A stretch of DNA of 64,000 nt from Deferribacterales bacterium. GTDB taxonomy: Bacteria > Chrysiogenota > Deferribacteres > Deferribacterales > Geovibrionaceae. Under the pieces are notes generated by a model, which did no database searches, was not told the origin of the DNA, and worked only from the letters and a program-made list of their open reading frames with translations. Location: NCBI GenBank assembly GCA_050253075.1, contig JBFWJS010000003.1:117458-181457 (forward strand). The letters run 5' to 3'. Numbering within the stretch: the first letter of the stretch is position 1; the number at the start of each line of letters is the position of its first letter. The position numbers and the translations under genes were made by a program. This document shows, in pieces, positions 1-15,905 of this stretch.

Positions 1-846
1 GCCGCTATGGCCGGTGCACAGGATCTTAGAGCATCGCTTTTATACAAAATAAAGCTCGGCGAACATGCCGCTCCGGCGGATGTTGTCCTTTATGACGACG
101 GAAGGACGGGCATCTATGATGCATACTCCGGCCGATATACCGTTTATAAAGGGGATGTAAGTGAAGGCGGATTTCAGAGTGAAATGCTGAAGGGCGGAAA
201 CTGCTTTGTCGCAAACGGAAACTATTTCCTTTACTGCGACAGCGTGAACAGCTCTGTAGACATGATCTCTGCTTCCGGTGAGCTTTATAAATCGTTTAGT
301 ATTCCGTCAGATATAAAAGGCAAGTACGACCCTACTGATGCCCTTGTGTCTGACGGTTTTCTTTTTACAGCCGACAACGACAACCACAGGGTTGTAAAGG
401 CTGACCTTGCCACGGGCGAAGTCGCAATGGTACAGGGCGGATACGGCGACAGCAAACTTAAGTTCTGGTATCCGTATGCTCTGTCTATGGACTCTAAGGG
501 AGTTCTCTATGTGTCTGAGGTGCTCAACACCAGAGTGCAGAAGATCACAAAAGAGCTTAAATTCTATGAATTCTACGGAAGCTGGGGTATCAAACCCGGC
601 GAATTTTTCAGACCGACAGGTGTGGCCGTCTATAAAGGGGATAATGTCCTTGTAGGCGACGGATACACAGGCGTCATTCAGTATCTCGACAACGAGGGCA
701 GGTTTACCGGTCTTTTAAAAGACAAGAGCGGAAACAGGCTCAGCCTCGGTTCTGTCACTCATATCAGAGTAAACGGAGACAGGCTCGGCGTCGTGGATGC
801 GTTTGGCAAAACGGTCTATATATTTGAACTGGAGGAGCTGAAGTGA
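1..846 (+). CDS. NHL-repeat beta-propeller protein (5' end probably outside the window)
   Basis: Repeated NHL-like blades (PTDALVSDGFLFTADNDNHRV, YPYALSMDSKGVLYVSEVLNTRVQ, RPTGVAV). The frame is open from base 1. The stop overlaps the next GTG start. Confidence 0.8.
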   Translation, partial: AAMAGAQDLRASLLYKIKLGEHAAPADVVLYDDGRTGIYDAYSGRYTVYKGDVSEGGFQSEMLKGGNCFVANGNYFLYCDSVNSSVDMISASGELYKSFSIPSDIKGKYDPTDALVSDGFLFTADNDNHRVVKADLATGEVAMVQGGYGDSKLKFWYPYALSMDSKGVLYVSEVLNTRVQKITKELKFYEFYGSWGIKPGEFFRPTGVAVYKGDNVLVGDGYTGVIQYLDNEGRFTGLLKDKSGNRLSLGSVTHIRVNGDRLGVVDAFGKTVYIFELEELK

Positions 847-3800
847 AAAAACTGCTAATACTGCTGCCGATGCTCCTTGCCGCTTTTGCGGCTTATTCAG
901 CTGATGTCACAAAGCTGAATCCCGATTCTTCGAAACAGTGTGCGGTCTGCCACTATGAGTGGATGCCTGAGTTCCTCTTTGACCTGAAAGGTACAGAGCT
1001 TGTGGACTATCAGAGCGAAAAGACCGTCGCTACTGAAAAGATGTGCTTCAGCTGTCACAACGGAACCGTAGGCGACAGCCGTATCAGGATATGGTCCGGA
1101 GATATGCATAAGCTCTCCGACAAGATCCCTGAGCACATGAACATCCCTAAAGAACTTCCTCTCAACGGCAACTCTATCGGATGCCGAACATGTCACTCTG
1201 CCCACTCCACAGGAAACCCTGAGAAAGAGGGCGTTGAAAAAAGCGTGTTCCTCCGCATGGAAAACGAAGACTCTCAGCTCTGTCAGGCATGCCACACAGA
1301 CATGTCAAAGGATAAGGTGCACAGCCATCCTCTGAAAGAGATGAAGAAAGCCGGCGAGATAGAACCTAAACTGAAAAAGATGTTCGGTAAGCTGGGAAGC
1401 AAAGATCAGGTAGTCTGCGAAAGCTGCCATACGCCTCACTCACCGAAAGAAAATAAACTTCTCATAAGCGAGCTGACAGACTCGAAGCTCTGCTCTGTAT
1501 GCCACGAAGATAAGGTAAACCCCGATAACCTCACATATGTTAAAGGCGTGCTGAACCACCCTATCAATGTGATACAGGAAAAACCTGTGGCAGATATTGA
1601 GAAACACGGCGGTAAATACGGCAAAGGGGGCGAAGTTATCTGCCTCACATGCCATGCTCCGCACAACGGTAAAAACAAAGGTCTGCTCATTGAAAACAAT
1701 CAGGACAGCAAGCTCTGCCTGACATGCCATAATGAAAAAAAATCTGTCGTCTCCACAAAGCACGACATGAAGACCGTAAAAGGATACAGAACAAAAGACG
1801 GAAGAACAGCACAGGAAACAGGCACATGCGAAAGCTGCCACGCCCCACACGGATGGGCAGTGAAGCTGCCTAAAGGCGAGGGCGACCTCATCTCTAAAAG
1901 CTGTCTTTCATGTCACGACGACGGCGGTGTGGCTGAGAAGAAGGTTATTTCTTCGAAACTCTTTAACCACCCTGTCGGCAAGTCTATCAAAGACGGTGTC
2001 AAAGCGCCGGAGAACCTTCCGCTTTACGGACGCCTGCTGAACTTCCTTACAGAGTTCAGAACAGACGGTGAAGTGAAGAAGACAGTAACATGCGCAACAT
2101 GCCACGATGTCCACTCCAAAGGACAGAACTTCCTCCGTGCCGAAGCGGAAACAGGCGCACTCTGCATCTCATGTCATAATGAAAAAGAGATGATACAGAA
2201 GACGCTTCACGGCGGACAGAAGCTTGAAAAGAACTGTCTCTCATGCCACAAAGTGCACAACAGCGACAACGAGCGTCTCCTCACTAAGGGCGAGAACGAC
2301 GGATGTCTCACTTGTCACAAAGAGGGCGAGATAGGACAGAAAATGCTCACAGGCGAGCACTCCCACCCGGTTAATATGGCAGTAGACCGTAAGCTGGACG
2401 AGCACTTCAAACTGAGCAAAGATAATAAGATGACATGCGTAAGCTGTCACGACCCTCACTCGAGCACAAAGACTGCCAAGCTGGACAGAGACTTTATCAG
2501 AGGCGGATTCGCAGATAAAGATCAGTTCTGTACTGCATGTCACGAAGGTCAGAAAGAGATCATCGGAAGCGACCACGACGTACGAAAGAAAGACAGCGAA
2601 GAGGTTTGCTCTCAGTGTCACGCCGTGCATAAGGCCAAAACCGATAAGAATATAATGGCTCTGGAATACGCCTACAGCACCGAAGATGACAGCTGTAAGG
2701 TCTGCCACTCTGAAAAGGGTTCCGCAGATAAAAAGATAGTCATGGACGGACACAAACTCGGCAAGACAGAGATGCATGAGAAATACGGCAAGTTCCTCAC
2801 TGAAAAGGACGGGGACTACTATATCTATTGTTCAAGCTGTCACACCGTGCACAACAACGGACCGAAAAAGGGCGAGGAAGGAACCATCCGGAACAGCTTC
2901 CTGAATAAGAAACTGTCCGAAAACGGCAGCTTCTGTGCAGGATGCCACGAAGATAAGAAAAGTTTTGCGGCTTCAAAGCACAACGTAAACAGCTTTGAAA
3001 ACCACTCAGATAAAACAGCGAAAGCTAAAGCCGAAGGGGACACATGCGGATCCTGCCACATTGTCCACAACAGCGGCGAATATCTCTTTGCTAAAGAGTA
3101 CGGCGGTAATTTCGAAAAGATGTGCGAGAGCTGTCACGCCAAGGGCGAAGCAGCATCCAAAACAGCTATCGAAACAAGCCATAAGATGAACATGAAGCCT
3201 GAGAAGGTTGACGGACTCTTCCTGCAGGGGGGCAATGTTGTATGTGCCACATGTCACGAGCCTCATGCCGAAAACAAAGGCATGCTACGTGATCTGGGCG
3301 ATAAAAACATATGCGCCACATGTCACAAAGACAAAGATATGGTAGAGCTCTCCGAGCACAACATTGCGAAACTTGACTACATCGAAGGTGAAATAAAAGC
3401 CACAGCAGGCGTGAATCCATGCTATACATGTCATAAGCCTCACAACTTCCACAAAGGAAACAAATACATGTGGGCGTTTGAGATGAAAGATAAGCGCGGA
3501 TTCGCATACGACGTATGCTCTTCTTGCCATGCCGATAAAGGTATAGGGTATAAGAAGGTGCCTGATGCTCAGGTTCATGCCCGTATATTTAAGATTTTCC
3601 CTTACAAAGAGCGCTTTAAAGAGTATCTCTTTGACGAAAAGGGCGAAGTATCCACAGACGGAGCTATCACATGCCAGACATGTCATGATCCGCACGTGTG
3701 GGTGAAAGGCATGACAAAGCCTGAGATAAATGTCGAAGGCGATACTAAGAACAGCTTCCTGAAACTCTCCGTAAAAGACGACTTCTGTAAAGTCTGTCAC

Positions 3801-3950
3801 GGCGAGAAACAGTCCGAAGACCTGTTTAATAAGTATCACGATCAGAAATTCCGCGACGAACTCAATAAAAAGGACAACGAAGCGGAAGTTATGAAAAACA
3901 TACTTATGATCCAGATGAATCTTGAAAAGTATAAGGAGGAGAAAAAGTGA
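843..3950 (+). CDS. Periplasmic 28-heme cytochrome c (paired CxxCH repeats)
   Basis: Sec-type signal peptide; 28 CxxCH motifs counted, mostly in CxxCHxxH...CxxCH pairs. Confidence 0.95.
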   Translation: MKKLLILLPMLLAAFAAYSADVTKLNPDSSKQCAVCHYEWMPEFLFDLKGTELVDYQSEKTVATEKMCFSCHNGTVGDSRIRIWSGDMHKLSDKIPEHMNIPKELPLNGNSIGCRTCHSAHSTGNPEKEGVEKSVFLRMENEDSQLCQACHTDMSKDKVHSHPLKEMKKAGEIEPKLKKMFGKLGSKDQVVCESCHTPHSPKENKLLISELTDSKLCSVCHEDKVNPDNLTYVKGVLNHPINVIQEKPVADIEKHGGKYGKGGEVICLTCHAPHNGKNKGLLIENNQDSKLCLTCHNEKKSVVSTKHDMKTVKGYRTKDGRTAQETGTCESCHAPHGWAVKLPKGEGDLISKSCLSCHDDGGVAEKKVISSKLFNHPVGKSIKDGVKAPENLPLYGRLLNFLTEFRTDGEVKKTVTCATCHDVHSKGQNFLRAEAETGALCISCHNEKEMIQKTLHGGQKLEKNCLSCHKVHNSDNERLLTKGENDGCLTCHKEGEIGQKMLTGEHSHPVNMAVDRKLDEHFKLSKDNKMTCVSCHDPHSSTKTAKLDRDFIRGGFADKDQFCTACHEGQKEIIGSDHDVRKKDSEEVCSQCHAVHKAKTDKNIMALEYAYSTEDDSCKVCHSEKGSADKKIVMDGHKLGKTEMHEKYGKFLTEKDGDYYIYCSSCHTVHNNGPKKGEEGTIRNSFLNKKLSENGSFCAGCHEDKKSFAASKHNVNSFENHSDKTAKAKAEGDTCGSCHIVHNSGEYLFAKEYGGNFEKMCESCHAKGEAASKTAIETSHKMNMKPEKVDGLFLQGGNVVCATCHEPHAENKGMLRDLGDKNICATCHKDKDMVELSEHNIAKLDYIEGEIKATAGVNPCYTCHKPHNFHKGNKYMWAFEMKDKRGFAYDVCSSCHADKGIGYKKVPDAQVHARIFKIFPYKERFKEYLFDEKGEVSTDGAITCQTCHDPHVWVKGMTKPEINVEGDTKNSFLKLSVKDDFCKVCHGEKQSEDLFNKYHDQKFRDELNKKDNEAEVMKNILMIQMNLEKYKEEKK

Positions 3951-4810
3951 GAAAGCTCCTTATAACATGCTTTGCGGCAATGCTTTTCGCTCCGCAGGTA
4001 CAGGCAGAGATGAAGCCTGTATTCGGCAGCGGGCTGAAGATGGACAAGGACTATGGCGTGCTTTATTTCAACAGTGAAAAGAGGCGTGATGTCAGCATAA
4101 TGTCGTCATTCATCAGTGACTGCACAGACCTGAAAGTTGCGTGTATATGCGCAGATGTCTCAGGCAGAAGCACAGACCAGCTGAAAGAAGCATTTCATAA
4201 TGCAGAAGGCAACGACTGCCTTTACAGTACAGATAAATCCGATGAATCGCCCCGTGCAGAGTTTTTTGCAGGCGGCGAATCGGTCGGTAACATAAACGAA
4301 CACGAGAACTTTACTCTGCTGCTCCCCGCATACCTCAAATATGTGGCGAAAGAGATAGATGATAAAGGTCTCGAAGAACAGCTCAAAGCTGCCGCAGGCG
4401 CCGAGGCTTATAAGAAGATCGTCCCCAGGATGAACTTCGTGCTGATGCTTGCGAAAAAGGGTGAGCGTGATGCCGCCCTGCACGAGCTGGACGGTATAGA
4501 TACCGCTATGTTGGATGATAAGGGTATGCTCCTTCTGGGGCAGACGTATCTTCGTCTGAAAGCACCGGAAAAAGCCCACGATATCCTGAAAGACTGCAAT
4601 GATAATGAATGCCGCTTTTATTCTGCTGTTGCACTTCACCTTTCAGGGAGAAACGAAGAGGCTGTTAACGCTTTCATATCTTTGAAAAAAGTATATAATG
4701 ACGACGATAAGATCAATTTTTATTTAAAAGCTGCCTATAAAGCTTTAGGGGACGATGTTGATGCGGATAAGATTAAACTGCCTGACAACTATAATATTAA
4801 TTCTGATTAG
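3947..4810 (+). CDS. Exported protein with degenerate thioredoxin-like N-domain and C-terminal TPRs
   Basis: Signal peptide (PQVQA|EM); TPR-like helices LLGQTYLRLKAPEKA, FYSAVALHLSGRNEEA, FYLKAAYKALGD. Confidence 0.7.
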   Translation: MRKLLITCFAAMLFAPQVQAEMKPVFGSGLKMDKDYGVLYFNSEKRRDVSIMSSFISDCTDLKVACICADVSGRSTDQLKEAFHNAEGNDCLYSTDKSDESPRAEFFAGGESVGNINEHENFTLLLPAYLKYVAKEIDDKGLEEQLKAAAGAEAYKKIVPRMNFVLMLAKKGERDAALHELDGIDTAMLDDKGMLLLGQTYLRLKAPEKAHDILKDCNDNECRFYSAVALHLSGRNEEAVNAFISLKKVYNDDDKINFYLKAAYKALGDDVDADKIKLPDNYNINSD

Positions 4811-5741
4811 CTTTTTTGCCGCAGGAACGGCGACAGCTAAGATGAATATACTTTTTCCTATATCGAATGACGTTAAAGCTGTCAGCAATATTCATATAGT
4901 GGGGATGACAGATACTGATGTCCCCGTGACAGTCACTATAAACGGTGTGAAGACTGAGAAGAAACTTATCTGCGACGGTACCACTGACGCCGGTAAGAAT
5001 ATCTATATGCTGATGACAATACTCAAGCTCGAAGCCGGTGAGAACAAGATACTCATCACACAGGGCGATCAGAGCGAAAGCTATACTATCACAAAGGTGG
5101 ATTCACCTGTCTCTATCACCGACTGGACAAAGAACCTCAGCGGGTTTCATGCCAGCGGTAAAAAAGAGATATGCATGAACTGCCACAAATTCCAAAACCT
5201 CAGTGACTGTGTAAACTGTCATAAGGATAAATTCATCGGTAAGTGGGTTCATAAACCAGTGAAAGAAGCAAGGTGCTTTGAGTGTCATGAAAAAGAGCGC
5301 AACTTCATCCCTGCGGAGCCTTTTGCCGAAACATGCCTTAAATGCCATGAAAAAATGAACAACTCCATAGCGGAAGCTCCATATACACACGGACCTGTTG
5401 CTGCGGGGTTCTGCACCATATGCCACTCTCCCCATAAGTCCACTGATAAGACACATCTGCGTAAATCGGCAAACAGCCTTTGTGCGGACTGTCACGTTGC
5501 GGACGATCAGGGATTCAGCTATCACTCACAGAGCTATATAAAATTCCACCCCGTGGATAAGGTTTTTGTGAAAAAGCTGGATAAGGAACTGGAGTGCAGC
5601 GACTGTCATAATCCTCACTACAGCAACAGCCCCATGATGCTGGCGGCGGAGGATGAGAGTGCTCTTTGTGTCAAATGCCACGACGCATCAGACACCGAAG
5701 CACTGCTTAAGAAGCTGGCAGACGAATATAACAAGGAATGA
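4755..5741 (+). CDS. Octaheme cytochrome c with N-terminal Ig-like domain
   Basis: Signal peptide; beta-rich domain (VTVTINGV...LKLEAGENKILIT); 8 CxxCH motifs. Confidence 0.9.
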   Translation: MLMRIRLNCLTTIILILISFFAAGTATAKMNILFPISNDVKAVSNIHIVGMTDTDVPVTVTINGVKTEKKLICDGTTDAGKNIYMLMTILKLEAGENKILITQGDQSESYTITKVDSPVSITDWTKNLSGFHASGKKEICMNCHKFQNLSDCVNCHKDKFIGKWVHKPVKEARCFECHEKERNFIPAEPFAETCLKCHEKMNNSIAEAPYTHGPVAAGFCTICHSPHKSTDKTHLRKSANSLCADCHVADDQGFSYHSQSYIKFHPVDKVFVKKLDKELECSDCHNPHYSNSPMMLAAEDESALCVKCHDASDTEALLKKLADEYNKE

Positions 5742-5758
5742 GACCAGAGGTTTATTAT

Positions 5759-7936
5759 ATGAAGTTTATAAGATTTCTGCTTTTGGCAGCATTTGTTCTG
5801 TCACTTACAGCTTGTGTCGGTGGCGGTTCTAAGAAAAGCTCCGTTAATGACGACACACGAGTCCTTTCCACTGTGAAAGTCGATGATGAAGGCAAGCTCA
5901 GCTATGTCGGCAGCGGAGACTTAGAAGGATTTGAGCTAAACATAGATGACCCTGCCCTTGCGGGGAGAACAATATATATAGAAAAAAGTGCAGCCGCCTA
6001 TGTAACAGGCGGTTATGTTGCGGTTTCAGATAAATATTCTGTACGCCTTACAGATGCTGAAACATCTGTGGATACATATTACGAAGGCGGAGTGACTGTT
6101 CCTTACAGCGCATCAATGCTGGCTGCCGAGGGCGGTACGGCTGCTGATGTGTCTGTCTGCTCGATGATCAATGGTGTTGTGGTAGCATCTGCCACTACAG
6201 CGGGCTCGGGAGCATATGTGACATCAGGGATAGACTTCCCTGTGAGCTTCTTCGCAGGATACAGAAAGGTCGTAGAGTTCAACACCTCGGGTGTTATACA
6301 GTCCAAAGGTCTAAGCTATGCATCTGCCGATGCTGCGGGTGACTATCTCCAGGACCCTGCGGGGACACTTCATCCTGATGTTTTAAGAGGTCTCTTCCAC
6401 ATTCAGCCGGGTGAGAAAATTCTCCTCGGTATAAACGAAGCAGCCTACGGCGACACTGTTGCGGATGTTCAGTGGAGCATAACATCAAAGCCGGCCGGTT
6501 CTACAGCTGCACTGACTGCTGACGGCGACGACACAATGCTGATACCTGATGTGGTCGGAACATACATCGTACAGGCAGAGATACTCGGCGGAAACGGACA
6601 GACAACGGAAGAATCAGCAAACATAGAGGCGCAGGCATACTCCTATAATGCGGCATTAGGTGACGCATACTGCTATTTTCAGTGCCATACGGGTACTTTC
6701 AGCCCTTCTACAAAAGATCAATACGGCAGAACACTCTTCAGAGATATAGTTTCAATGTGGCAGGGCACAGCCCACTCCACAACATTTAACAGAGTCTCAG
6801 GCTCTGTTGATTCCGCATGCTTTAAATGCCACACCACAGGCTTCCTCTATGCCGACAGAGACAACAACGGCACGGATGAATACAGTATAGCAGACGGCTA
6901 CGACGATACTATCGGAGCGGCAAACTGGGCAACACCCGCTGTGGGCGATGCACATCTCAGAAACGTAACATGCGAAGCATGCCACGGCCCCACCTCTACA
7001 GGTGCTGATATGATAGCGAAACACTACAGCAACACATCGCTCTCCTCCGACACATGCCTTGCGTGTCATGATCACGGCAATATAGGTGGCGGACACTTCT
7101 TCGAATATTCCGATGCCCATGATAAAGCATTCACACTTGCCGACGGCACTGTCGCATCAACTTCAGCGTGTGCAAAATGCCACACGGGCGAAGGTATGAT
7201 GGGACGCATCTTCGGCGTGAACATAAATACTGCAAACAGAACAGACGTAACAGGCGTTACATGTAATGTATGCCACGACCCGCACGGTGAAGGGGGCAAT
7301 AATGCTCAGCTTCGTCTCAGCGGAACATACGAGATAGACCTCGCAGGCGGAACACTCACTGCTAATGCAGGAGATGCTCTCATCTGTTATAACTGCCACA
7401 ATGCCGATATGCAGCTCCCTGCTGTGGGCGTTATGCCTCACAACTCTCAGGCAGAGATGTTTCAGGGTGTGGGCGGATACGACTATGGCGAAGATCTGAA
7501 CCGTTATCTCACAGGCCACTCTATCACAGGAGTTACATGCAACGACTGCCATATGAACAGAAACGAAGGCGTTACACACCAGATGCTGATGACAGAAAAT
7601 ACTGCGGACAGACTTATTTTCTGCAGTACACCTGGCTGCCATGTCAGCGGTTTACCTGAATTTACCGACGGTCACTTTGACAGAGGCGGTAAGCTCGCAG
7701 GTATAAGAGTAAAGATAGACCAGCTCGCAGATACTATAAACAGCAAAGCAGGCTTTGCCGCGGGTACAGCAATATCTGCATCATACGCCGCTGCCGACAG
7801 CGATCTTAAGACCGCTTTGGACAGAGCCGCTTATAACTATAATTTTATTAAGAACGACAGAAGCTTCGGTTTTCATAATCCGAGTTATGCAGAGAAACTT
7901 ATTGACCTTTCTCTTGCTGATCTGGCTAACTACTAA
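5759..7936 (+). CDS. Multiheme cytochrome c lipoprotein (7 CxxCH + CX3CH + CX4CH) with PKD/Ig-like N-terminal region
   Basis: Lipobox LTAC; AGAGG RBS before ATG 5759; WSITSKPAGS..PDVVGTY PKD-like strand pattern; C-terminal helical NYNF..D.S.GFHNP.Y motif seen in outer-surface multiheme cytochromes. Confidence 0.9.
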   Translation: MKFIRFLLLAAFVLSLTACVGGGSKKSSVNDDTRVLSTVKVDDEGKLSYVGSGDLEGFELNIDDPALAGRTIYIEKSAAAYVTGGYVAVSDKYSVRLTDAETSVDTYYEGGVTVPYSASMLAAEGGTAADVSVCSMINGVVVASATTAGSGAYVTSGIDFPVSFFAGYRKVVEFNTSGVIQSKGLSYASADAAGDYLQDPAGTLHPDVLRGLFHIQPGEKILLGINEAAYGDTVADVQWSITSKPAGSTAALTADGDDTMLIPDVVGTYIVQAEILGGNGQTTEESANIEAQAYSYNAALGDAYCYFQCHTGTFSPSTKDQYGRTLFRDIVSMWQGTAHSTTFNRVSGSVDSACFKCHTTGFLYADRDNNGTDEYSIADGYDDTIGAANWATPAVGDAHLRNVTCEACHGPTSTGADMIAKHYSNTSLSSDTCLACHDHGNIGGGHFFEYSDAHDKAFTLADGTVASTSACAKCHTGEGMMGRIFGVNINTANRTDVTGVTCNVCHDPHGEGGNNAQLRLSGTYEIDLAGGTLTANAGDALICYNCHNADMQLPAVGVMPHNSQAEMFQGVGGYDYGEDLNRYLTGHSITGVTCNDCHMNRNEGVTHQMLMTENTADRLIFCSTPGCHVSGLPEFTDGHFDRGGKLAGIRVKIDQLADTINSKAGFAAGTAISASYAAADSDLKTALDRAAYNYNFIKNDRSFGFHNPSYAEKLIDLSLADLANY

Positions 7937-7941
7937 GGGAG

Positions 7942-9192
7942 ATGCTGCCTGTGAAAACACTCAGACTGACACTAACAATTATTATCCTATACATGGCGTG
8001 TGCGACAGCCTATGCATTTAATGTGGACGGCATGTTCAGCACGGCATACGAGGTATACAAAGACGAGGGGGAGGACTCCGAAAGCCTTTGGGAAAACTAT
8101 CTCAGTATAGACAACATGAAGCTTATCGACCCTTATGTAGGCTTTAACTTTTACGGAAGATACGCAACAGACACTGAAACAAATGAAAATCATTCAGACA
8201 TCTATACAGCGTATCTGGACTACAGCAGCTTTCAGGACAAAGTTCAGGTGAAGTTAGGACGTTTCAGCTATGTCGGAAACAGGTTCCTCACTCTGGACGG
8301 TGCTGAAGCGACACTGCGCACAGAGAAATATGTCGGTGCAACTGTATTCGCAGGTAAGCCTGCATACTTTGACGCAGACGGCAAACACATAAACGAATCA
8401 TACCGCCATACGGGAGACAGGCTTTACGGAGCAAAGCTCTTCCTTAACGGTGTTGCAGATACTACAGGTTTTATATCTTTCTCCAGAGAGACAGACGACG
8501 GCGATACTCTTCAGGAGATGCTCGGACTAGGTCTAGGACGCAAGTTCATCGTCGGTAAGGCGAAGCTCGGCGTAGACGGCAAGCTCGAGTATGATACTGA
8601 GGAATCAGCGATATACAAAAGCATGATCAGAGGATTCATGAGCTATGAAAAGCTCCTCCTCAGCGCAGATGTGACCAGCTACGACGTTAAAGACGGTTCC
8701 TCATATGAGAACGAACTGGTCATCAGCAACTTCTCCACAGGTAAGGAAGACAGATATGCTTTTAACATTCAGTACGCTGTCACAGAGCATATCAAACCAT
8801 ACCAGAGCACAGTTTTCTCCCGAATCGAGCTCCCCAGCGGAGAGGTTGAAACAGGTGAGATGTATAAGCTCGGCGTTGATTTCGACTGGTTTAAGTCTAT
8901 GGGGCTTTCATCAAACATCGAGGGATACTACTACAACAGTGAGATATCCAACGCAAAGGGCGGAAGCGTTGCACTGGACTGGAACGCTACAAAGACTCTT
9001 AAGCTGAGCTTCGAAGGCGAGGCTCTCAGGCTGGAGAACACCTCTGTTGAAAAAGATGTCTATTCGCTTTATTTCGAAGCTGCATACGATGTCTTAAAAG
9101 ACCTGACCGTCAGCGCATATGCTGAGAACAACAAGGAGACTAGATATCTCCCTGAAAACAGATACGGCATCAAAGCTGCCTACAGCTTTTAG
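7942..9192 (+). CDS. Outer-membrane beta-barrel (putative porin of a porin-cytochrome complex)
   Basis: Signal peptide; alternating amphipathic strands; C-terminal BAM-type signal YGIKAAYSF; flanked by cytochrome genes. The start may be GTG 7951. Confidence 0.85.
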   Translation: MLPVKTLRLTLTIIILYMACATAYAFNVDGMFSTAYEVYKDEGEDSESLWENYLSIDNMKLIDPYVGFNFYGRYATDTETNENHSDIYTAYLDYSSFQDKVQVKLGRFSYVGNRFLTLDGAEATLRTEKYVGATVFAGKPAYFDADGKHINESYRHTGDRLYGAKLFLNGVADTTGFISFSRETDDGDTLQEMLGLGLGRKFIVGKAKLGVDGKLEYDTEESAIYKSMIRGFMSYEKLLLSADVTSYDVKDGSSYENELVISNFSTGKEDRYAFNIQYAVTEHIKPYQSTVFSRIELPSGEVETGEMYKLGVDFDWFKSMGLSSNIEGYYYNSEISNAKGGSVALDWNATKTLKLSFEGEALRLENTSVEKDVYSLYFEAAYDVLKDLTVSAYAENNKETRYLPENRYGIKAAYSF

Positions 9193-9214
9193 ATAATATT
9201 ATTAAGAGGATATA

Positions 9215-9787
9215 ATGAAAAGGTTTTCATGGTTTTTATTGATAATAATAACTGTTGCGGCGGCAGCCGGATGTGCACAGTTTTACTACCAGTCACCACT
9301 GGCAAAGTTTAATCACGAAAAGCACGTAGACATCCTTTTTCAGCAGAAAAAAGACTGTTTCTACTGCCATCAGCTCCCTGATATCAAGACATTTGTCGAG
9401 CAGGGGGGCGAGCTGAAGATCACCAGCGAGCTGAAAATAGACGGCAAGTGCCACACATGCCACAAAGATCAGGAGACAAAGATAGCGTCTGCTCCGCAGA
9501 ACTGCAGCTCCTGCCACGAAAATATGAAAGTAATGAAGCCTGAAGACCATGTGAACAACTGGACAAACATGCACGCCGTACCGGCTACGCTTGATAAAGC
9601 CAGCTGTAACAGCTGTCATCAGGACTGGTTCTGTGAGAGCTGCCACAGCAAGCAGAACTCAATGGAAAATTTAAGACACTCAAGATCGTTCAAGCTGAAG
9701 CACTCGCTTGAGGCCATGGTTGACCCGGGCTCCTGTGACTCGTGCCACAGGGTGGACTTCTGTATCTCATGTCATAGAAAGGATTAA
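9215..9787 (+). CDS. Heptaheme cytochrome c lipoprotein (c7-like N-domain)
   Basis: Lipobox AAGC; FNHEKH c3/c7 signature; 7 CxxCH motifs. Confidence 0.9.
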   Translation: MKRFSWFLLIIITVAAAAGCAQFYYQSPLAKFNHEKHVDILFQQKKDCFYCHQLPDIKTFVEQGGELKITSELKIDGKCHTCHKDQETKIASAPQNCSSCHENMKVMKPEDHVNNWTNMHAVPATLDKASCNSCHQDWFCESCHSKQNSMENLRHSRSFKLKHSLEAMVDPGSCDSCHRVDFCISCHRKD

Positions 9788-9790
9788 ACA

Positions 9791-10828
9791 ATGAAGATAA
9801 AGGTTTTACTATTTCTAACACTTATAATTGTTTCATCAATACTCGTCGCTTGCGGCGGAGCTAACGTAGGGGACGGCAGTTCACCCACCAGAGTGACAAA
9901 GTCCACCGCACCGCAGCTTCTCGAGCCTGATGACCATGCAGGCGGTTACGGATGGGAGAATGACAAATGCTTCCTGTGTCACCCTGTGGTACAGCTTCAG
10001 GACATTCACTCATTCAGCGAGCCCCTCGGCGACAGCTTTGCAAAAGTAGGTGACGACGACATCGGTGCATGCCTCTATTGCCACGGCTCAAACGGGCTGT
10101 CAGGCATCACTGCGGATACATACCAGTGTGTCACATGCCACCAGAACAGCAGCATAGTATCAAAAGCGGGTATGTTCAGCGGACACAACATGCACGACCT
10201 CGACCACGACGGACAGATATCAAACTCTGACTGTGTGATCTGTCACTCTTTCTCCGATATGAACGGCGTCATGGATCTTTCCATAGACCTCACCGCAGGC
10301 GGTACTGCATATAATGATACTAATGACTTCTGCCTCGCATGCCACGACGGAAACGGCGCTTTCGGCGTCACTCCTCCTGCGCTTTCTGTTGAGACAGAGG
10401 TGAACAATATATACGCTACATACATGGGAGTAGGCGACACTGCAGCCGCTCAGAAGCTCACTGCGGACATCCACGGTATAAAGGATGGCAACGGACAGAG
10501 CTTTGCGGATTTCCGCGGACTGTACGCTGCGAATACGACTGTGTCATGCCTTAGCTGTCATCAGGTACACTCATCTGACAACGAGTACCTCATCACCGAA
10601 AGCGGTGAGAGTGCCGACCTTGCAGATGAAGCAGCTCTGAACGCACACGTAAGCGTAATAGACAGTGATTTCTCTGAGCTTTGTGCTCTCTGTCATGCTA
10701 CGGCAGGCGGCGGTGATACCGCTAACGGTCTGACCGAAGTGGTGCACACCAGCACATACTCAAGCAACTGTATCTCATGTCACTATCACGGTGCAGGCTA
10801 CGGAGCTTCCACCGCAGACCTTTTCTAA
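9791..10828 (+). CDS. Octaheme cytochrome c lipoprotein
   Basis: Lipobox LVAC; 8 CxxCH motifs; acidic composition. Confidence 0.9.
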   Translation: MKIKVLLFLTLIIVSSILVACGGANVGDGSSPTRVTKSTAPQLLEPDDHAGGYGWENDKCFLCHPVVQLQDIHSFSEPLGDSFAKVGDDDIGACLYCHGSNGLSGITADTYQCVTCHQNSSIVSKAGMFSGHNMHDLDHDGQISNSDCVICHSFSDMNGVMDLSIDLTAGGTAYNDTNDFCLACHDGNGAFGVTPPALSVETEVNNIYATYMGVGDTAAAQKLTADIHGIKDGNGQSFADFRGLYAANTTVSCLSCHQVHSSDNEYLITESGESADLADEAALNAHVSVIDSDFSELCALCHATAGGGDTANGLTEVVHTSTYSSNCISCHYHGAGYGASTADLF

Positions 10829-10834
10829 GACCAT

Positions 10835-10869
10835 AAAAAAAGGGGAATCCGAAAAGATTCCCCTTTATT
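10835..10869. terminator. Bidirectional intrinsic terminator
   Basis: AAAAAAAGGGGAATC-CGAAAA-GATTCCCCTTTATT between convergent genes. Confidence 0.85.
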
Positions 10870-10888
10870 GTTTCAAAACATATTCAGC

Positions 10889-11356
10889 TTAAAACGATTG
10901 AACGCCTGAAGTGATCTCTTTGATGAGTTCCTGCATCTTCGGCACATAGTGTCCTTCATAGCCTATTGCGTGGATGATGTTGTTATCCTTATCCAGCACG
11001 ATAGTAGTGGGAAGAGCTATTATGTGGAGCTCTTTCAGATAAGCATGGGGATCGGTCACCGTTACGATGCGTCCTTCGGCTTTCTCTGCTGCCTTTTTAT
11101 CAAGAGCAAGGCACGGAGTCTCTATGCCGGCGCACAGCTCCTGAAAAGCCGTGTACTGCTTCTTACTGAGTCTTTTTTCACTGTCGTATACAAAGAGCAG
11201 CCTGCATGCAGATTTGTCTTTCTGCGGAGCATATCCCTTGTCGTAAGTGAACTTGCCCATATCGAGCTTTGAGCCCTTTTCCGCTCCGCGAAGAGGGAAA
11301 GCGTGCAGTGTCACCACCAGCACGCATATTGATAAAAGTACGGATGTAAACTTCAT
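10889..11356 (-). CDS. Exported thioredoxin/TlpA-like fold protein lacking CxxC
   Basis: Signal peptide; IIALPTTIVLDKDNNI cis-Pro motif of the TlpA/Prx fold; the CxxC position reads DSEKRLS. Confidence 0.65.
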   Translation of the reverse strand: MKFTSVLLSICVLVVTLHAFPLRGAEKGSKLDMGKFTYDKGYAPQKDKSACRLLFVYDSEKRLSKKQYTAFQELCAGIETPCLALDKKAAEKAEGRIVTVTDPHAYLKELHIIALPTTIVLDKDNNIIHAIGYEGHYVPKMQELIKEITSGVQSF

Positions 11357-11364
11357 AATTTTAC

Positions 11365-12498
11365 CTATTTGTTATCGACGGGTGCTTCCCTGTCATAGGC
11401 TTTCGGCTTATGGCATCCCACCACACATGAACCGCCGTTCTCTGTCTGTGTGTATTTGATAGGGAGCATCCATCCGCCAGCACCGAAAGGTACTTCGGCT
11501 CTGATATGTAGAGGCTGTGAAGATGCGTGCACTTCATGACAAGACTTACAGCTTCTGCCTTTTTTATCCATAGTTACGTGTCTGTTATGAAGGTTCATGT
11601 CTCCGTTGCGGAAGTTTGTCTCGTCTTTGGATGTCAGCTTCGCTTCGTCGTGACACTCAAAACAGAGAGCATAGAGACCTTCCTGATAGTCGTTATAAAA
11701 GTTTTCTGGGAAATAGTCATAGAGTATCTTCGGATTCGCAGAACCGTGTACGCTGTGACAAGCGGAACATCCGTCCATAGCAACAGGAGCGTGGACGTAT
11801 TCCATATTTTTAACTCTTTCGCCGATGGTGTCATGACACTCATAGCATGTTTCGGATATTTCGTTACCGAGGAACATCTCATAGTCTGAACCGTGCGGGT
11901 TGTGACAGTTGATACAGCTGTCCTGCACAGGTGCGTGCTGATGTTCTGAGTTCACTATTTCCTGAATATCGACGTGACAGCTGAGGCAGAGGTTGTTCAC
12001 CTCGTCCCTGAGTTGATACTGATTGTCTGATGAGTGTGGGCTGTGGCAGTATGCGCACTGTCCCGCAGCAACAGGTCCGTGAACGTATTTTACTTCGGTC
12101 TTGTTTTCGTGGCACATATAGCATGTTTCAGATTCTGTCGCTGTTGCGAGCATGAATTTGTTTTCGCTTCCGTGCGGGTTGTGACAGTCAGTACAGCTGT
12201 CGTCTGCTACAGGCTGGTGCACATTTGACTTATCTTTGAAAGTCTCGTGGCACATATAGCAGAGATTCTCGCCTTCTGATACGGGCGATTCGAAGTTTTT
12301 GTTGTTATCCGGGTCTTCCTGATGATTAACGATGAGGTTATCATCAGCAATATGACAGTCAAGGCAGGAACCTTCTCCCACAGGCGAGTGCATCACAGGC
12401 TGTTCGGATATGTCGGAGTGACAGTCTGAGTAGTTGCATGTGGCAGCAGCGGCTGATAATGATGTCATAAGGATGACAAGAATAAATAAATATCGCAT
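11365..12498 (-). CDS. Periplasmic multiheme cytochrome c (11 CxxCH + CX4CH + CX3CH)
   Basis: GGAG RBS then MRYLFIL signal peptide; repeated H.PV..G.CxxCHxPH...CxxCH units. Confidence 0.92.
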   Translation of the reverse strand: MRYLFILVILMTSLSAAAATCNYSDCHSDISEQPVMHSPVGEGSCLDCHIADDNLIVNHQEDPDNNKNFESPVSEGENLCYMCHETFKDKSNVHQPVADDSCTDCHNPHGSENKFMLATATESETCYMCHENKTEVKYVHGPVAAGQCAYCHSPHSSDNQYQLRDEVNNLCLSCHVDIQEIVNSEHQHAPVQDSCINCHNPHGSDYEMFLGNEISETCYECHDTIGERVKNMEYVHAPVAMDGCSACHSVHGSANPKILYDYFPENFYNDYQEGLYALCFECHDEAKLTSKDETNFRNGDMNLHNRHVTMDKKGRSCKSCHEVHASSQPLHIRAEVPFGAGGWMLPIKYTQTENGGSCVVGCHKPKAYDREAPVDNK

Positions 12499-14033: not shown

Positions 14034-15905
14034 ATGGATGCCTTGTATGTAAATATAATGTGGGTGTTGTTATGCAGCTTTCTGGTGGCTATCATGCAGG
14101 CCGGATTCGCCTGTCTGGAGACCGGATTCGTACGCTCTAAAAACAACGTAAACGTAGCAGTTAAAAATCTCATGGATTTCTGCCTCAGCAGTATCCTTTT
14201 TACCATAATCGGCTTCGGACTCATGTTCGGAGAATCCAAAATCGGCATGATCGGCGAATTTTCTTACATAAAAATATCAGGCATGACCATAGATCAGGTC
14301 ACATTCTATATATTCCAGCTTATGTTTGCGGGCACGGCGGCCACTATCATATCAGGTGCAGTGGCGGAGCGGATGAAGTTCTCAGGATATATCCTCGTAA
14401 CGTGTATAATGGCCGTAGCCATTTATCCCGTGTGCGGTCACTGGATATGGAATTCCACGGGCTGGCTTAACAGATTCGGCTTTATAGATTTCGCAGGCTC
14501 GACAGTGGTGCACAGTGTCGCTGGCTGGTGTTCGCTGGCTGCCGTCATAATCATCGGGCCCAGGCTCGGACGATTCGGCAGGGGCGGGAAGCCCATAGAC
14601 GGACAGAACCTGCCTATCGCAGTGCTCGGTGTATTTCTCTTATGGTTCGGCTTTTTCGGATTCAACGGAGGCAGTACGCTGGAGCTTAACGATCAGGTTC
14701 CGATGATAATAGCAAATACAACACTCGCAGGTGCCGCAGGCGGTGTCTCTGCGATGATATACAGCTGGTATAAGTATCACATGCCGAAGGTGGAGCACAT
14801 CATAAACGGCGTTGTAGCAGGGCTCGTGGCTATATGTGCGGGGTGCCACCTCTTCAATGAGATGGGCGGTTTCCTCACTGGCTTCGGAGCCGGTCTCCTC
14901 TGCGTTTGGTCTATGCTTTTCCTTGAAAAGAGAGAGATAGACGATGTTATCGGTGCAGTACCTGCACACCTTGTTGCGGGCATGTGGGGTACACTTGCCG
15001 TGGCTCTTTTTGCACCGGTCGAGTCTTTCCCCGTTGCGACCAGCAGGTTCGAGCAGTTCGGCATACAGTTTGTCGGTGTTGCTGCTGCGGGTCTTTTCTC
15101 TTTTAATGTGCTTTACTTCGCAATGCGCATCCTTGAGCGCTGGGTTACATTCCGTGTGACACAGGACGACGAGCGCATCGGTCTGAACATCTCCGAGCAC
15201 GGCTCAACCACCAGCCTTTTAGACCTCATCAGCCAGATGGATCTTCAGGCGAAGAGCGGAGATTTCTCCAGCTATGTGGACATAGAGCCCGAAACAGAGG
15301 CAGGGCACATCGCAACATTTTATAACTCTGTACTTGAGAAATTCCATATAGAAGCAGCCCGCAGGCAGAACGCAATGGACGAACTGTATAAACTGGCTAA
15401 CTACGACTCGCTGACCAACCTCGTAAACCGCAGATATTTCTATGATATCACGTCCAAAGCTATCAGCAGGACAAAGCGAAGCGGTAAAAAGGTGGGGCTG
15501 CTCTTCCTCGACCTTGACGGATTCAAAAAAGTGAACGACACACTCGGGCATGAAGCAGGGGATGAACTGCTCATTCAGGTGGCGGAGAGAGGGCTCGGCA
15601 TCATACGTGAGTCGGACGTTTTCGGCAGAATAGGCGGGGACGAATTCTGCATTGTTGTGGAGAACTTCGAGTCTGAAAAAGACCTTTCCCAGCTGGCTAA
15701 AAAGATAATAAAATCACTCTCTGCTACATACACCCTGAGACCTGCAAAGGCAAACATCGGCGTATCAATAGGCATATCGGTATACGACGGTGCATCAGGG
15801 GAAACTATGACCGCAGACGACCTTGTCAAAATGGCGGACAAAGCCATGTATAAGATCAAAACCGGTACCAAAGGCAATTTCAGCTTTTATACACCCGAAG
15901 ATTAA
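14034..15905 (+). CDS. Ammonium transporter (Amt) - GGDEF fusion
   Basis: MQAGF, FQLMFA, DFAGSTVVH, GFNGGS and AVPAH Amt motifs; C-terminal RESD...RIGGDEF. Confidence 0.93.
   Translation: MDALYVNIMWVLLCSFLVAIMQAGFACLETGFVRSKNNVNVAVKNLMDFCLSSILFTIIGFGLMFGESKIGMIGEFSYIKISGMTIDQVTFYIFQLMFAGTAATIISGAVAERMKFSGYILVTCIMAVAIYPVCGHWIWNSTGWLNRFGFIDFAGSTVVHSVAGWCSLAAVIIIGPRLGRFGRGGKPIDGQNLPIAVLGVFLLWFGFFGFNGGSTLELNDQVPMIIANTTLAGAAGGVSAMIYSWYKYHMPKVEHIINGVVAGLVAICAGCHLFNEMGGFLTGFGAGLLCVWSMLFLEKREIDDVIGAVPAHLVAGMWGTLAVALFAPVESFPVATSRFEQFGIQFVGVAAAGLFSFNVLYFAMRILERWVTFRVTQDDERIGLNISEHGSTTSLLDLISQMDLQAKSGDFSSYVDIEPETEAGHIATFYNSVLEKFHIEAARRQNAMDELYKLANYDSLTNLVNRRYFYDITSKAISRTKRSGKKVGLLFLDLDGFKKVNDTLGHEAGDELLIQVAERGLGIIRESDVFGRIGGDEFCIVVENFESEKDLSQLAKKIIKSLSATYTLRPAKANIGVSIGISVYDGASGETMTADDLVKMADKAMYKIKTGTKGNFSFYTPED

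Follow-up and report, generated by a model that had tools for sequence, protein, structure and literature searches.

Genes and extent of the locus

The stretch of DNA analyzed here (the window) comprises 64,000 nucleotides from a Deferribacterales bacterium of the Geovibrionaceae (GenBank assembly GCA_050253075.1, contig JBFWJS010000003.1, positions 117,458 to 181,457 of the forward strand), and at its 5′ end lies a locus of multiheme c-type cytochromes that includes the gene of one outer-membrane β-barrel. An earlier note, made from the letters alone, had read there ten genes with about 73 hemes, eight of them tightly coupled on the plus strand and converging on two minus-strand genes, and this description holds: all ten open reading frames (ORFs) were found in place and on the strands given, the plus-strand genes are separated by −56 to +22 nt, and between the converging units lies a hairpin that looks like a bidirectional terminator (10839..10866, the same site as L002 17839-17866). 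The motifs of this part of the locus add up to 73 (69 CxxCH and four CX3-4CH). The single cytochromes carry 28 (1035 aa), 8 (328 aa), 7 (732 aa), 7 (190 aa), 8 (345 aa) and 11 (377 aa) CxxCH motifs, and these 7-28 motifs compare with at most two per protein in 500 residue shuffles. Taken as a locus, however, the ten-gene set is cut by the window edge, as the true GTG start of its first gene lies 41 nt upstream of the window edge, another four genes precede it, and the actual beginning is found 5.6 kb upstream of the window. The whole locus (the ten genes of the note, with the NHL gene in full, and the four upstream genes) contains 14 genes with 94 c-heme motifs, 87 of them canonical, against 165 canonical motifs genome-wide (counted over ORFs with at least two).

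The first gene encodes an NHL β-propeller (295 aa, 1..846, plus strand; PF01436, E 3e-9), and it is followed by a paired-CXXCH cytochrome of 1035 aa with a signal peptide (843..3950, plus strand), recognized by Pfam and by its 28 motifs, which are retained in those full-length orthologs that were inspected; it is predicted to be a periplasm-spanning wire. Next comes a degenerate Trx-fold/TPR protein of 287 aa without CxxC (3947..4810, plus strand), which by sequence is distantly paralogous to the protein in which relatives have Trx and TPR fused (E 3e-16 against one such fusion of 313 aa). An 8-heme cytochrome of 328 aa with a heme-free N-terminal domain (4755..5741, plus strand) precedes a 732-aa lipoprotein with 7+2 motifs (5738..7936, plus strand), a predicted surface terminal cytochrome. 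The C-terminal part of the latter is related to PF02335 and to PDB 6I5B (E 6e-7), which we take to be OcwA, a surface cytochrome of Thermincola, and no CxxCK motif occurs in this protein. The barrel gene (416 aa, 7942..9192, plus strand) and the gene of a 7-heme lipoprotein (190 aa, 9215..9787, plus strand) are then followed by that of an 8-heme lipoprotein (345 aa, 9791..10828, plus strand), predicted from its motifs and lipobox to be the outer-surface cytochrome of the conduit. For this last protein the PDB sequence search gave no relative, the Atlas look-alikes were generic multiheme clusters only, and the structure model (pLDDT 40) is unusable. The 732-, 190- and 345-aa cytochromes all carry lipoboxes, in agreement with the three lipoproteins claimed before, and the lipobox cysteine is invariant in 23/23 aligned homologs of the 190-aa and 11/11 of the 345-aa protein.

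On the minus strand lie a Trx-like protein of 155 aa (10889..11356), in which CX6C is kept but not CxxC and whose relatives are TPR-fused, and a periplasmic cytochrome of 377 aa with 11+2 motifs (11365..12498), which is of the paired-CXXCH type and DmsE/MtrA-like below cut-off (TIGR03508, 130 bits, cut-off 192). The pair was not found in the cluster-downstream DNA examined of L004, L009 and G030, and is therefore considered a variable part of the locus. As the 155-aa protein had no Pfam or NCBIfam match, its fold is inferred from the sequence pattern. A role as active thiol-disulfide oxidoreductase was rejected for the Trx-like genes, since CxxC is absent in 13/13 proteins examined. At this locus, the labels NHL, paired-CXXCH and, weakly, TPR are backed by Pfam and NCBIfam; the names "PKD" and "Ig", previously attached to two of the cytochromes, have no such support and were discarded as confirmed domains.

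The four additional genes are located on the plus strand of the same contig (C3) of the source genome (G000). Nearest to the window, a membrane-anchored triheme protein (285 aa, C3 116569-117426) is preceded by a cytochrome b561/FdnI-like protein (298 aa, C3 115676-116572), a predicted quinol oxidase that matches PF01292 above cut-off (E 4e-10) and whose His 28, 70, 197 and 212 are among the residues invariant in 11/11 homologs, and by a 357-aa cytochrome with 6+2 motifs, a C-terminal membrane helix and CbcA-like topology (C3 114590-115663). The outermost gene encodes an OmcA/MtrC-like lipoprotein (791 aa, C3 111890-114265) with 9+1 motifs and a lipobox, scoring below cut-off with TIGR03507 (E 1e-31, 110 bits, cut-off 209) and without a PDB match in the sequence search. 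The statement that the locus lacks MtrA/MtrC decahemes is correct for the cytochrome adjacent to the barrel, which has seven hemes, but not for the locus, as this 10-motif lipoprotein gene lies about 3.2 kb 5′ of the window. A 339-nt gap and a hairpin set it apart from the remaining genes, and it is regarded as accessory because strong matches occur in only 3 of the 68 Deferribacterota genomes surveyed (two more have weaker ones). A perfect TTGACA-16-TATAAT consensus is found about 140 nt 5′ of it (L002:1266-1293, corresponding to G000 C3:111723-111750); taken overall, promoter matches show no excess (29, against 30 in shuffles).

The barrel, its 7-heme partner and known systems

The AlphaFold prediction of the single barrel of the earlier note, based on 37 sequences, has a pLDDT of 88 and 22 strands, counted from DSSP elements, and falls inside the range of 18-22 strands given for porin-cytochrome (Pcc) porins (Shi et al., 2014; PMC4245776). 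Its best fold matches are TonB-dependent receptors (Z 19.6, root-mean-square deviation (rmsd) 4.8, 336 aligned residues), which align to the model only from their residue ~140-210 on; the barrel model thus lacks their plug, and the 171-residue heptaheme, predicted to fill it, would be approximately plug-sized. The fold searches returned generic barrels only (Z ≤19.6, rmsd 4-6), with no Pcc porin structure among the matches listed, and the Atlas look-alikes were unnamed clusters. The barrel matches no Pfam or NCBIfam family, PDB sequence searches with either protein of the pair were blank or at chance level, and none of 23 homologs of the 7-heme protein matched TIGR03508. Profile searching with the barrel recovered 49 relatives in 1.84 billion representatives (13 below 1e-30); no informative name was found among 10 of the 49 looked up, and an NCBIfam scan of 38 of them gave no informative barrel family.

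The identity of the pair is provided by earlier computational work, in which Dacet_0793/0794 of Denitrovibrio acetiphilus are listed as the porin and periplasmic cytochrome of Pcc group III (Shi et al., 2014; PMC4245776). Judged by sequence, the barrel (65% identity to Dacet_0793 over 99% of its length) and the 7-heme protein (73% to Dacet_0794 over 99%) are orthologs of this catalogued pair, whose genes are adjacent and in the same order. A strand number within the Pcc range, an adjacent partner with seven hemes (range 5-14) and orthology to a listed member all agree with the Pcc criteria, and lipoprotein cytochromes flank the pair. The published identities are low within the class, namely 19% to OmbB and 20% to OmaB for the Dacet orthologs, and 16-17% between Dacet_0793 and the other group III porins (PMC4245776). 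A porin-cytochrome conduit remains the best reading of the locus, but the claim that it is undescribed does not extend to the pair: orthology to a computationally listed Pcc pair was found, and none to an experimentally characterized conduit was shown. Differently from the locus described here, only the two Dacet genes are named in the text and tables examined of that study, which do not take up the 14-gene context and have no Dacet outer-membrane cytochrome in Tables S5-S6, and the cytochrome called periplasmic there has an invariant lipobox here (PMC4245776).

The 7-heme gene starts 22 nt 3′ of the barrel gene and directly follows it in every locus for which downstream DNA was examined, and even in the distant genomes G001 and G003 both profiles match neighboring genes (barrel, E 5e-13 and 7e-10; cytochrome, E 3e-11 and 5e-14). 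Barrel and small partner are also constant in G030 and G049, and the outer cytochromes downstream differ among these four genomes (16-, 13-, 10- and 15-heme proteins). In G040 and G049 the barrel gene stands immediately behind the 28-heme gene.

Several characterized or proposed systems share parts of this organization. Geobacter OmbB-OmaB-OmcB and ExtABCD/EFG likewise combine a small barrel (18-22 strands), a small multiheme partner and an outer lipoprotein cytochrome; unlike them, the pair here shares its locus with a quinol oxidase-like module and the 28-heme cytochrome. The principle is also common to Shewanella MtrCAB, and an OmcA/MtrC-like decaheme gene is present upstream; nevertheless, membership in that system was rejected, as the 416-aa barrel has 22 strands and not the 26 of MtrB, the adjacent partner is a 7-heme lipoprotein and not a decaheme MtrA, and TIGR03507 and TIGR03508 remain below cut-off. 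CbcBA of G. sulfurreducens pairs a b-type cytochrome with a C-terminally anchored multiheme c protein, as here (10.1101/2021.04.15.440034); the likeness is one of topology only, with 8 motifs here and 7 there and an additional 3-heme partner here. In PCC3 of Gallionellaceae, predicted for iron oxidizers, a periplasmic cytochrome that is likewise very large (21-27 hemes) is proposed to span the periplasm alongside a porin and an inner-membrane protein (PMC10734462).

The front half corresponds to the 19-gene multiheme cluster of Deferribacter (DEFDS_0741-60 / FHQ18_02900-02990), proposed for Fe(III) reduction (PMC2885270, PMC6896113, PMC13186404), which also has a cytochrome b near its front and 28-heme and 8-heme cytochromes. 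Clusters of families f2-f5 match it in the order, lengths and heme counts that are published, and they have eight genes in common with the locus of the window. Of the distinct architecture claimed by the earlier note, it holds that the barrel is not MtrB-sized. The Deferribacter cluster is without this barrel, the 7-heme protein, the 8-heme lipoprotein and the OcwA-like gene; instead, it contains a two-component system, an OmcE-like tetraheme, a PPIase, more NHL genes and a 794-aa protein, regarded as a barrel from its size and context, that has no detectable homology to the barrel considered here.

Proposed electron path and competing explanations

We propose, with a probability of about two in three, that the locus encodes a complete respiratory path leading electrons from the quinone pool out to the cell surface, with its exit through the Pcc group III pair, binding, direction and substrate being predicted. 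This reading is based on orthology to the published pair, the plug-less 22-strand model and the constant adjacency of barrel and 7-heme genes, and also on conserved gene order: the synteny check across Deferribacterota suggested beforehand was run, and the gene order is the same in G023, G029, G030 and L003-L007, in the first three of which it continues as in the window through the 8-heme lipoprotein. In addition, 3 of the 16 genomes of the family containing G000 (f1) miss barrel, 28-heme protein and cytochrome b jointly. In this path, the cytochrome b and its membrane-anchored 8- and 3-heme partners would oxidize menaquinol, as the CbcBA-like topology suggests, and the 28-heme protein, by the precedent proposed for PCC3 (PMC10734462), would bridge the periplasm, aided by the 13- and 8-heme proteins. 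The 7-heme lipoprotein inside the barrel may then move electrons through the outer membrane, and the 8-heme, the OcwA-like (nine motifs) and, in genomes that have it, the MtrC-like lipoprotein would hand them on to acceptors that are insoluble, with Fe(III)/Mn(IV) oxides, humics or electrodes as the likeliest ones. Scaffolding or chaperone functions, with no redox role, would fall to the NHL and Trx/TPR proteins.

Several observations weigh against this proposal. The literature search, with most subscription papers and figures outside its scope, yielded no experiment on any gene of the locus. For D. acetiphilus, which has the orthologous pair, nitrate is the only acceptor with which growth was reported, an iron test having failed for technical reasons (PMC3035293). 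Iron is not reduced by D. desulfuricans, in which the related cluster is present (PMC2885270), and Fe/Mn oxides are not used by two further carriers of Pcc (PMC4245776). Moreover, the tie to the characterized OmbB/OmaB amounts to the 19-20% identity of the published table, and the sequence does not fix on which side, surface or periplasm, each lipoprotein resides.

The acceptor could alternatively be a non-metal one, such as elemental sulfur, selenium oxyanions or nitrite, served by the same conduit with the NrfA-fold-related 732-aa lipoprotein as terminal enzyme. The similarity of this protein's C-terminal part to PF02335 (cytochrome c552) would agree with such a function, as would the description of Dacet_0792 as partly nrfB-like (Kiss 2010; PMC3035293), the reported ammonification without NrfA in D. 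acetiphilus and G. thiophilus, and the S0 and Se substrates proposed for non-Geobacter Pcc (Shi et al., 2014; PMC4245776). However, the protein lacks CxxCK, the genome has further octaheme proteins outside the locus, and soluble nitrite would hardly need an outer-membrane wire. We consider this explanation unlikely. Slightly less credit is given to an inward or two-way flow, in which electrons from reduced minerals, cathodes, steel or partner cells would drive nitrate reduction. Proteins of Gallionellaceae and Sulfuricella are indeed among the relatives of the 28-heme protein, uptake by PCC3 and Uet systems is proposed for Gallionellaceae, and heme wires may run reversibly (PMC10734462); yet the inner module resembles CbcBA, which is active in outward respiration (10.1101/2021.04.15.440034), no pcc cluster was reported in known Fe(II) oxidizers (Shi et al., 2014; PMC4245776), and 28-30% identity among repeat-rich cytochromes is no proof of orthology. 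Finally, we regard it as highly improbable that the barrel serves to export or anchor the lipoprotein cytochromes, or that the heme proteins mainly store charge, with no heme chain inside the barrel. In favor of this view, the lipobox of the 7-heme partner is invariant, which sets it apart from a soluble partner of the MtrA type, and a role as secretion pore or anchor has been proposed for barrels of the kind found in the sister cluster (PMC13712944). Against it, barrel and cytochrome are tightly adjacent in four lineages, a plug-less 22-strand barrel would require an occupant, and the two barrels lack detectable homology.

The porin-cytochrome principle itself is not new, and the barrel/7-heme pair and the sister Deferribacter cluster were already known; no description of the 14-gene layout was found in the literature searched. 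At least one "Omc system (PCC)" gene is reported for 88.9% of the clade containing this family (Pouder et al. 2026; PMC13186404), and this system probably corresponds to our locus. Outward electron transfer in Deferribacterota has been called unresolved (PMC6896113), and the locus unites, in cultured genera, a candidate quinol oxidase, a periplasmic wire, an outer-membrane conduit and surface cytochromes. The proposed outward path also predicts a latent mineral or electrode respiration in the oil-field nitrate reducer D. acetiphilus.

Distribution in Deferribacterota and two candidate exits

Among the 68 genomes, the 28-heme gene is present in 25, the barrel in 17 with strong and 2 with weak matches, and the 794-aa barrel-like protein in 9. 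The 25 genomes with the 28-heme gene divide into 15 with the barrel described here, 8 with the 794-aa protein, two with neither (87-88% complete, one carrying an OmcE-like gene) and none with both. Twelve loci were read gene by gene, and the front order (cytochrome c, cytochrome b, triheme, NHL, 28-heme) is the same in all 10 that have it. In G012, G014, G017 and G019 this front is followed by a two-component system, a tetraheme, the large barrel-like gene, a PPIase and NHL genes; one cluster of this Deferribacter type is L012:800-8471 (G014), syntenic in G011, G012, G017 and G019, the OmcE-like region genes of G011 being located on a different contig from the front. The tetraheme of these clusters matches PDB 7TFS, which we assume to be OmcE, with E 2e-14. 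An OmcE-like gene occurs in 10/68 genomes and in none of f1, and with the queries used neither the tetraheme nor the large barrel was found in G000 or in 15 other f1 genomes, and an OmcE/Osc nanowire reading was accordingly rejected for the window. In the G019 cluster (L017/L018), a transposase-like ORF, judged by eye, is found within the OmcE-like region; the OmcE-like ORF of this cluster stops after three CxxCH and is possibly disrupted.

In the tree of the 28-heme protein (16 rows), a single branch with support 100/100 separates the two exit types, which implies one event, in either direction. The cytochrome b tree leaves the exit types unresolved (two changes, with 8% of bootstrap trees having one). 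A separate three-gene Pcc is described in D. thermophilus (Pouder et al. 2026; PMC13186404), and mutual exclusivity is therefore valid only for the barrel family considered here. The omcE kit of PMC13712944 fits the tetraheme/large-barrel region of the Deferribacter-type clusters. As a tentative view, to which we give slightly less than even odds, Deferribacterales may share one ancient inner module, formed by the CbcBA-like quinol oxidase and the 28-heme wire, able to connect to one or the other of two unrelated exits, the Pcc pair (in this family and in G040 and G049) or an OmcE nanowire with a large barrel (in the Deferribacter-type clusters).

Within the scope of the literature search, no statement of exchanged exits or of OmcE in Deferribacter was found, titles and abstract openings of papers mentioning both did not make the link, and the text of PMC13712944 names five phyla for OmcE without Deferribacterota among them. 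If the two-exit view is correct, the route by which Deferribacter reduces Fe(III), so far missing, would be a nanowire system of the OmcE kind, in a phylum absent from the OmcE list, and culturable strains would possess a single-locus circuit from quinol to surface. A natural exit swap behind one 28-heme protein would offer a comparison for asking if giant cytochromes take the place of shuttles that diffuse through the periplasm, and would also bear on how nanowires get charged.

We also would like to point out two further observations. A second porin-cytochrome-like locus is found in G000 on the minus strands of C1:160-1698 and C2:650191-655570 (L031/L032), contig ends that overlap by 127 nt. 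It encodes a 479-aa barrel-like protein and a small multiheme cytochrome that matches the 7-heme profile (E 3e-12), followed by DmsA-like, DmsB-like and radical SAM proteins, and presumably resembles an extracellular dmsEFAB-type reductase. Further downstream in the window (14034-15905, plus strand) lies a 623-aa fusion of an ammonium-transporter-like protein with a GGDEF-like domain, judged by eye from its sequence, and an ORF resembling it also stands behind the G023 cluster.

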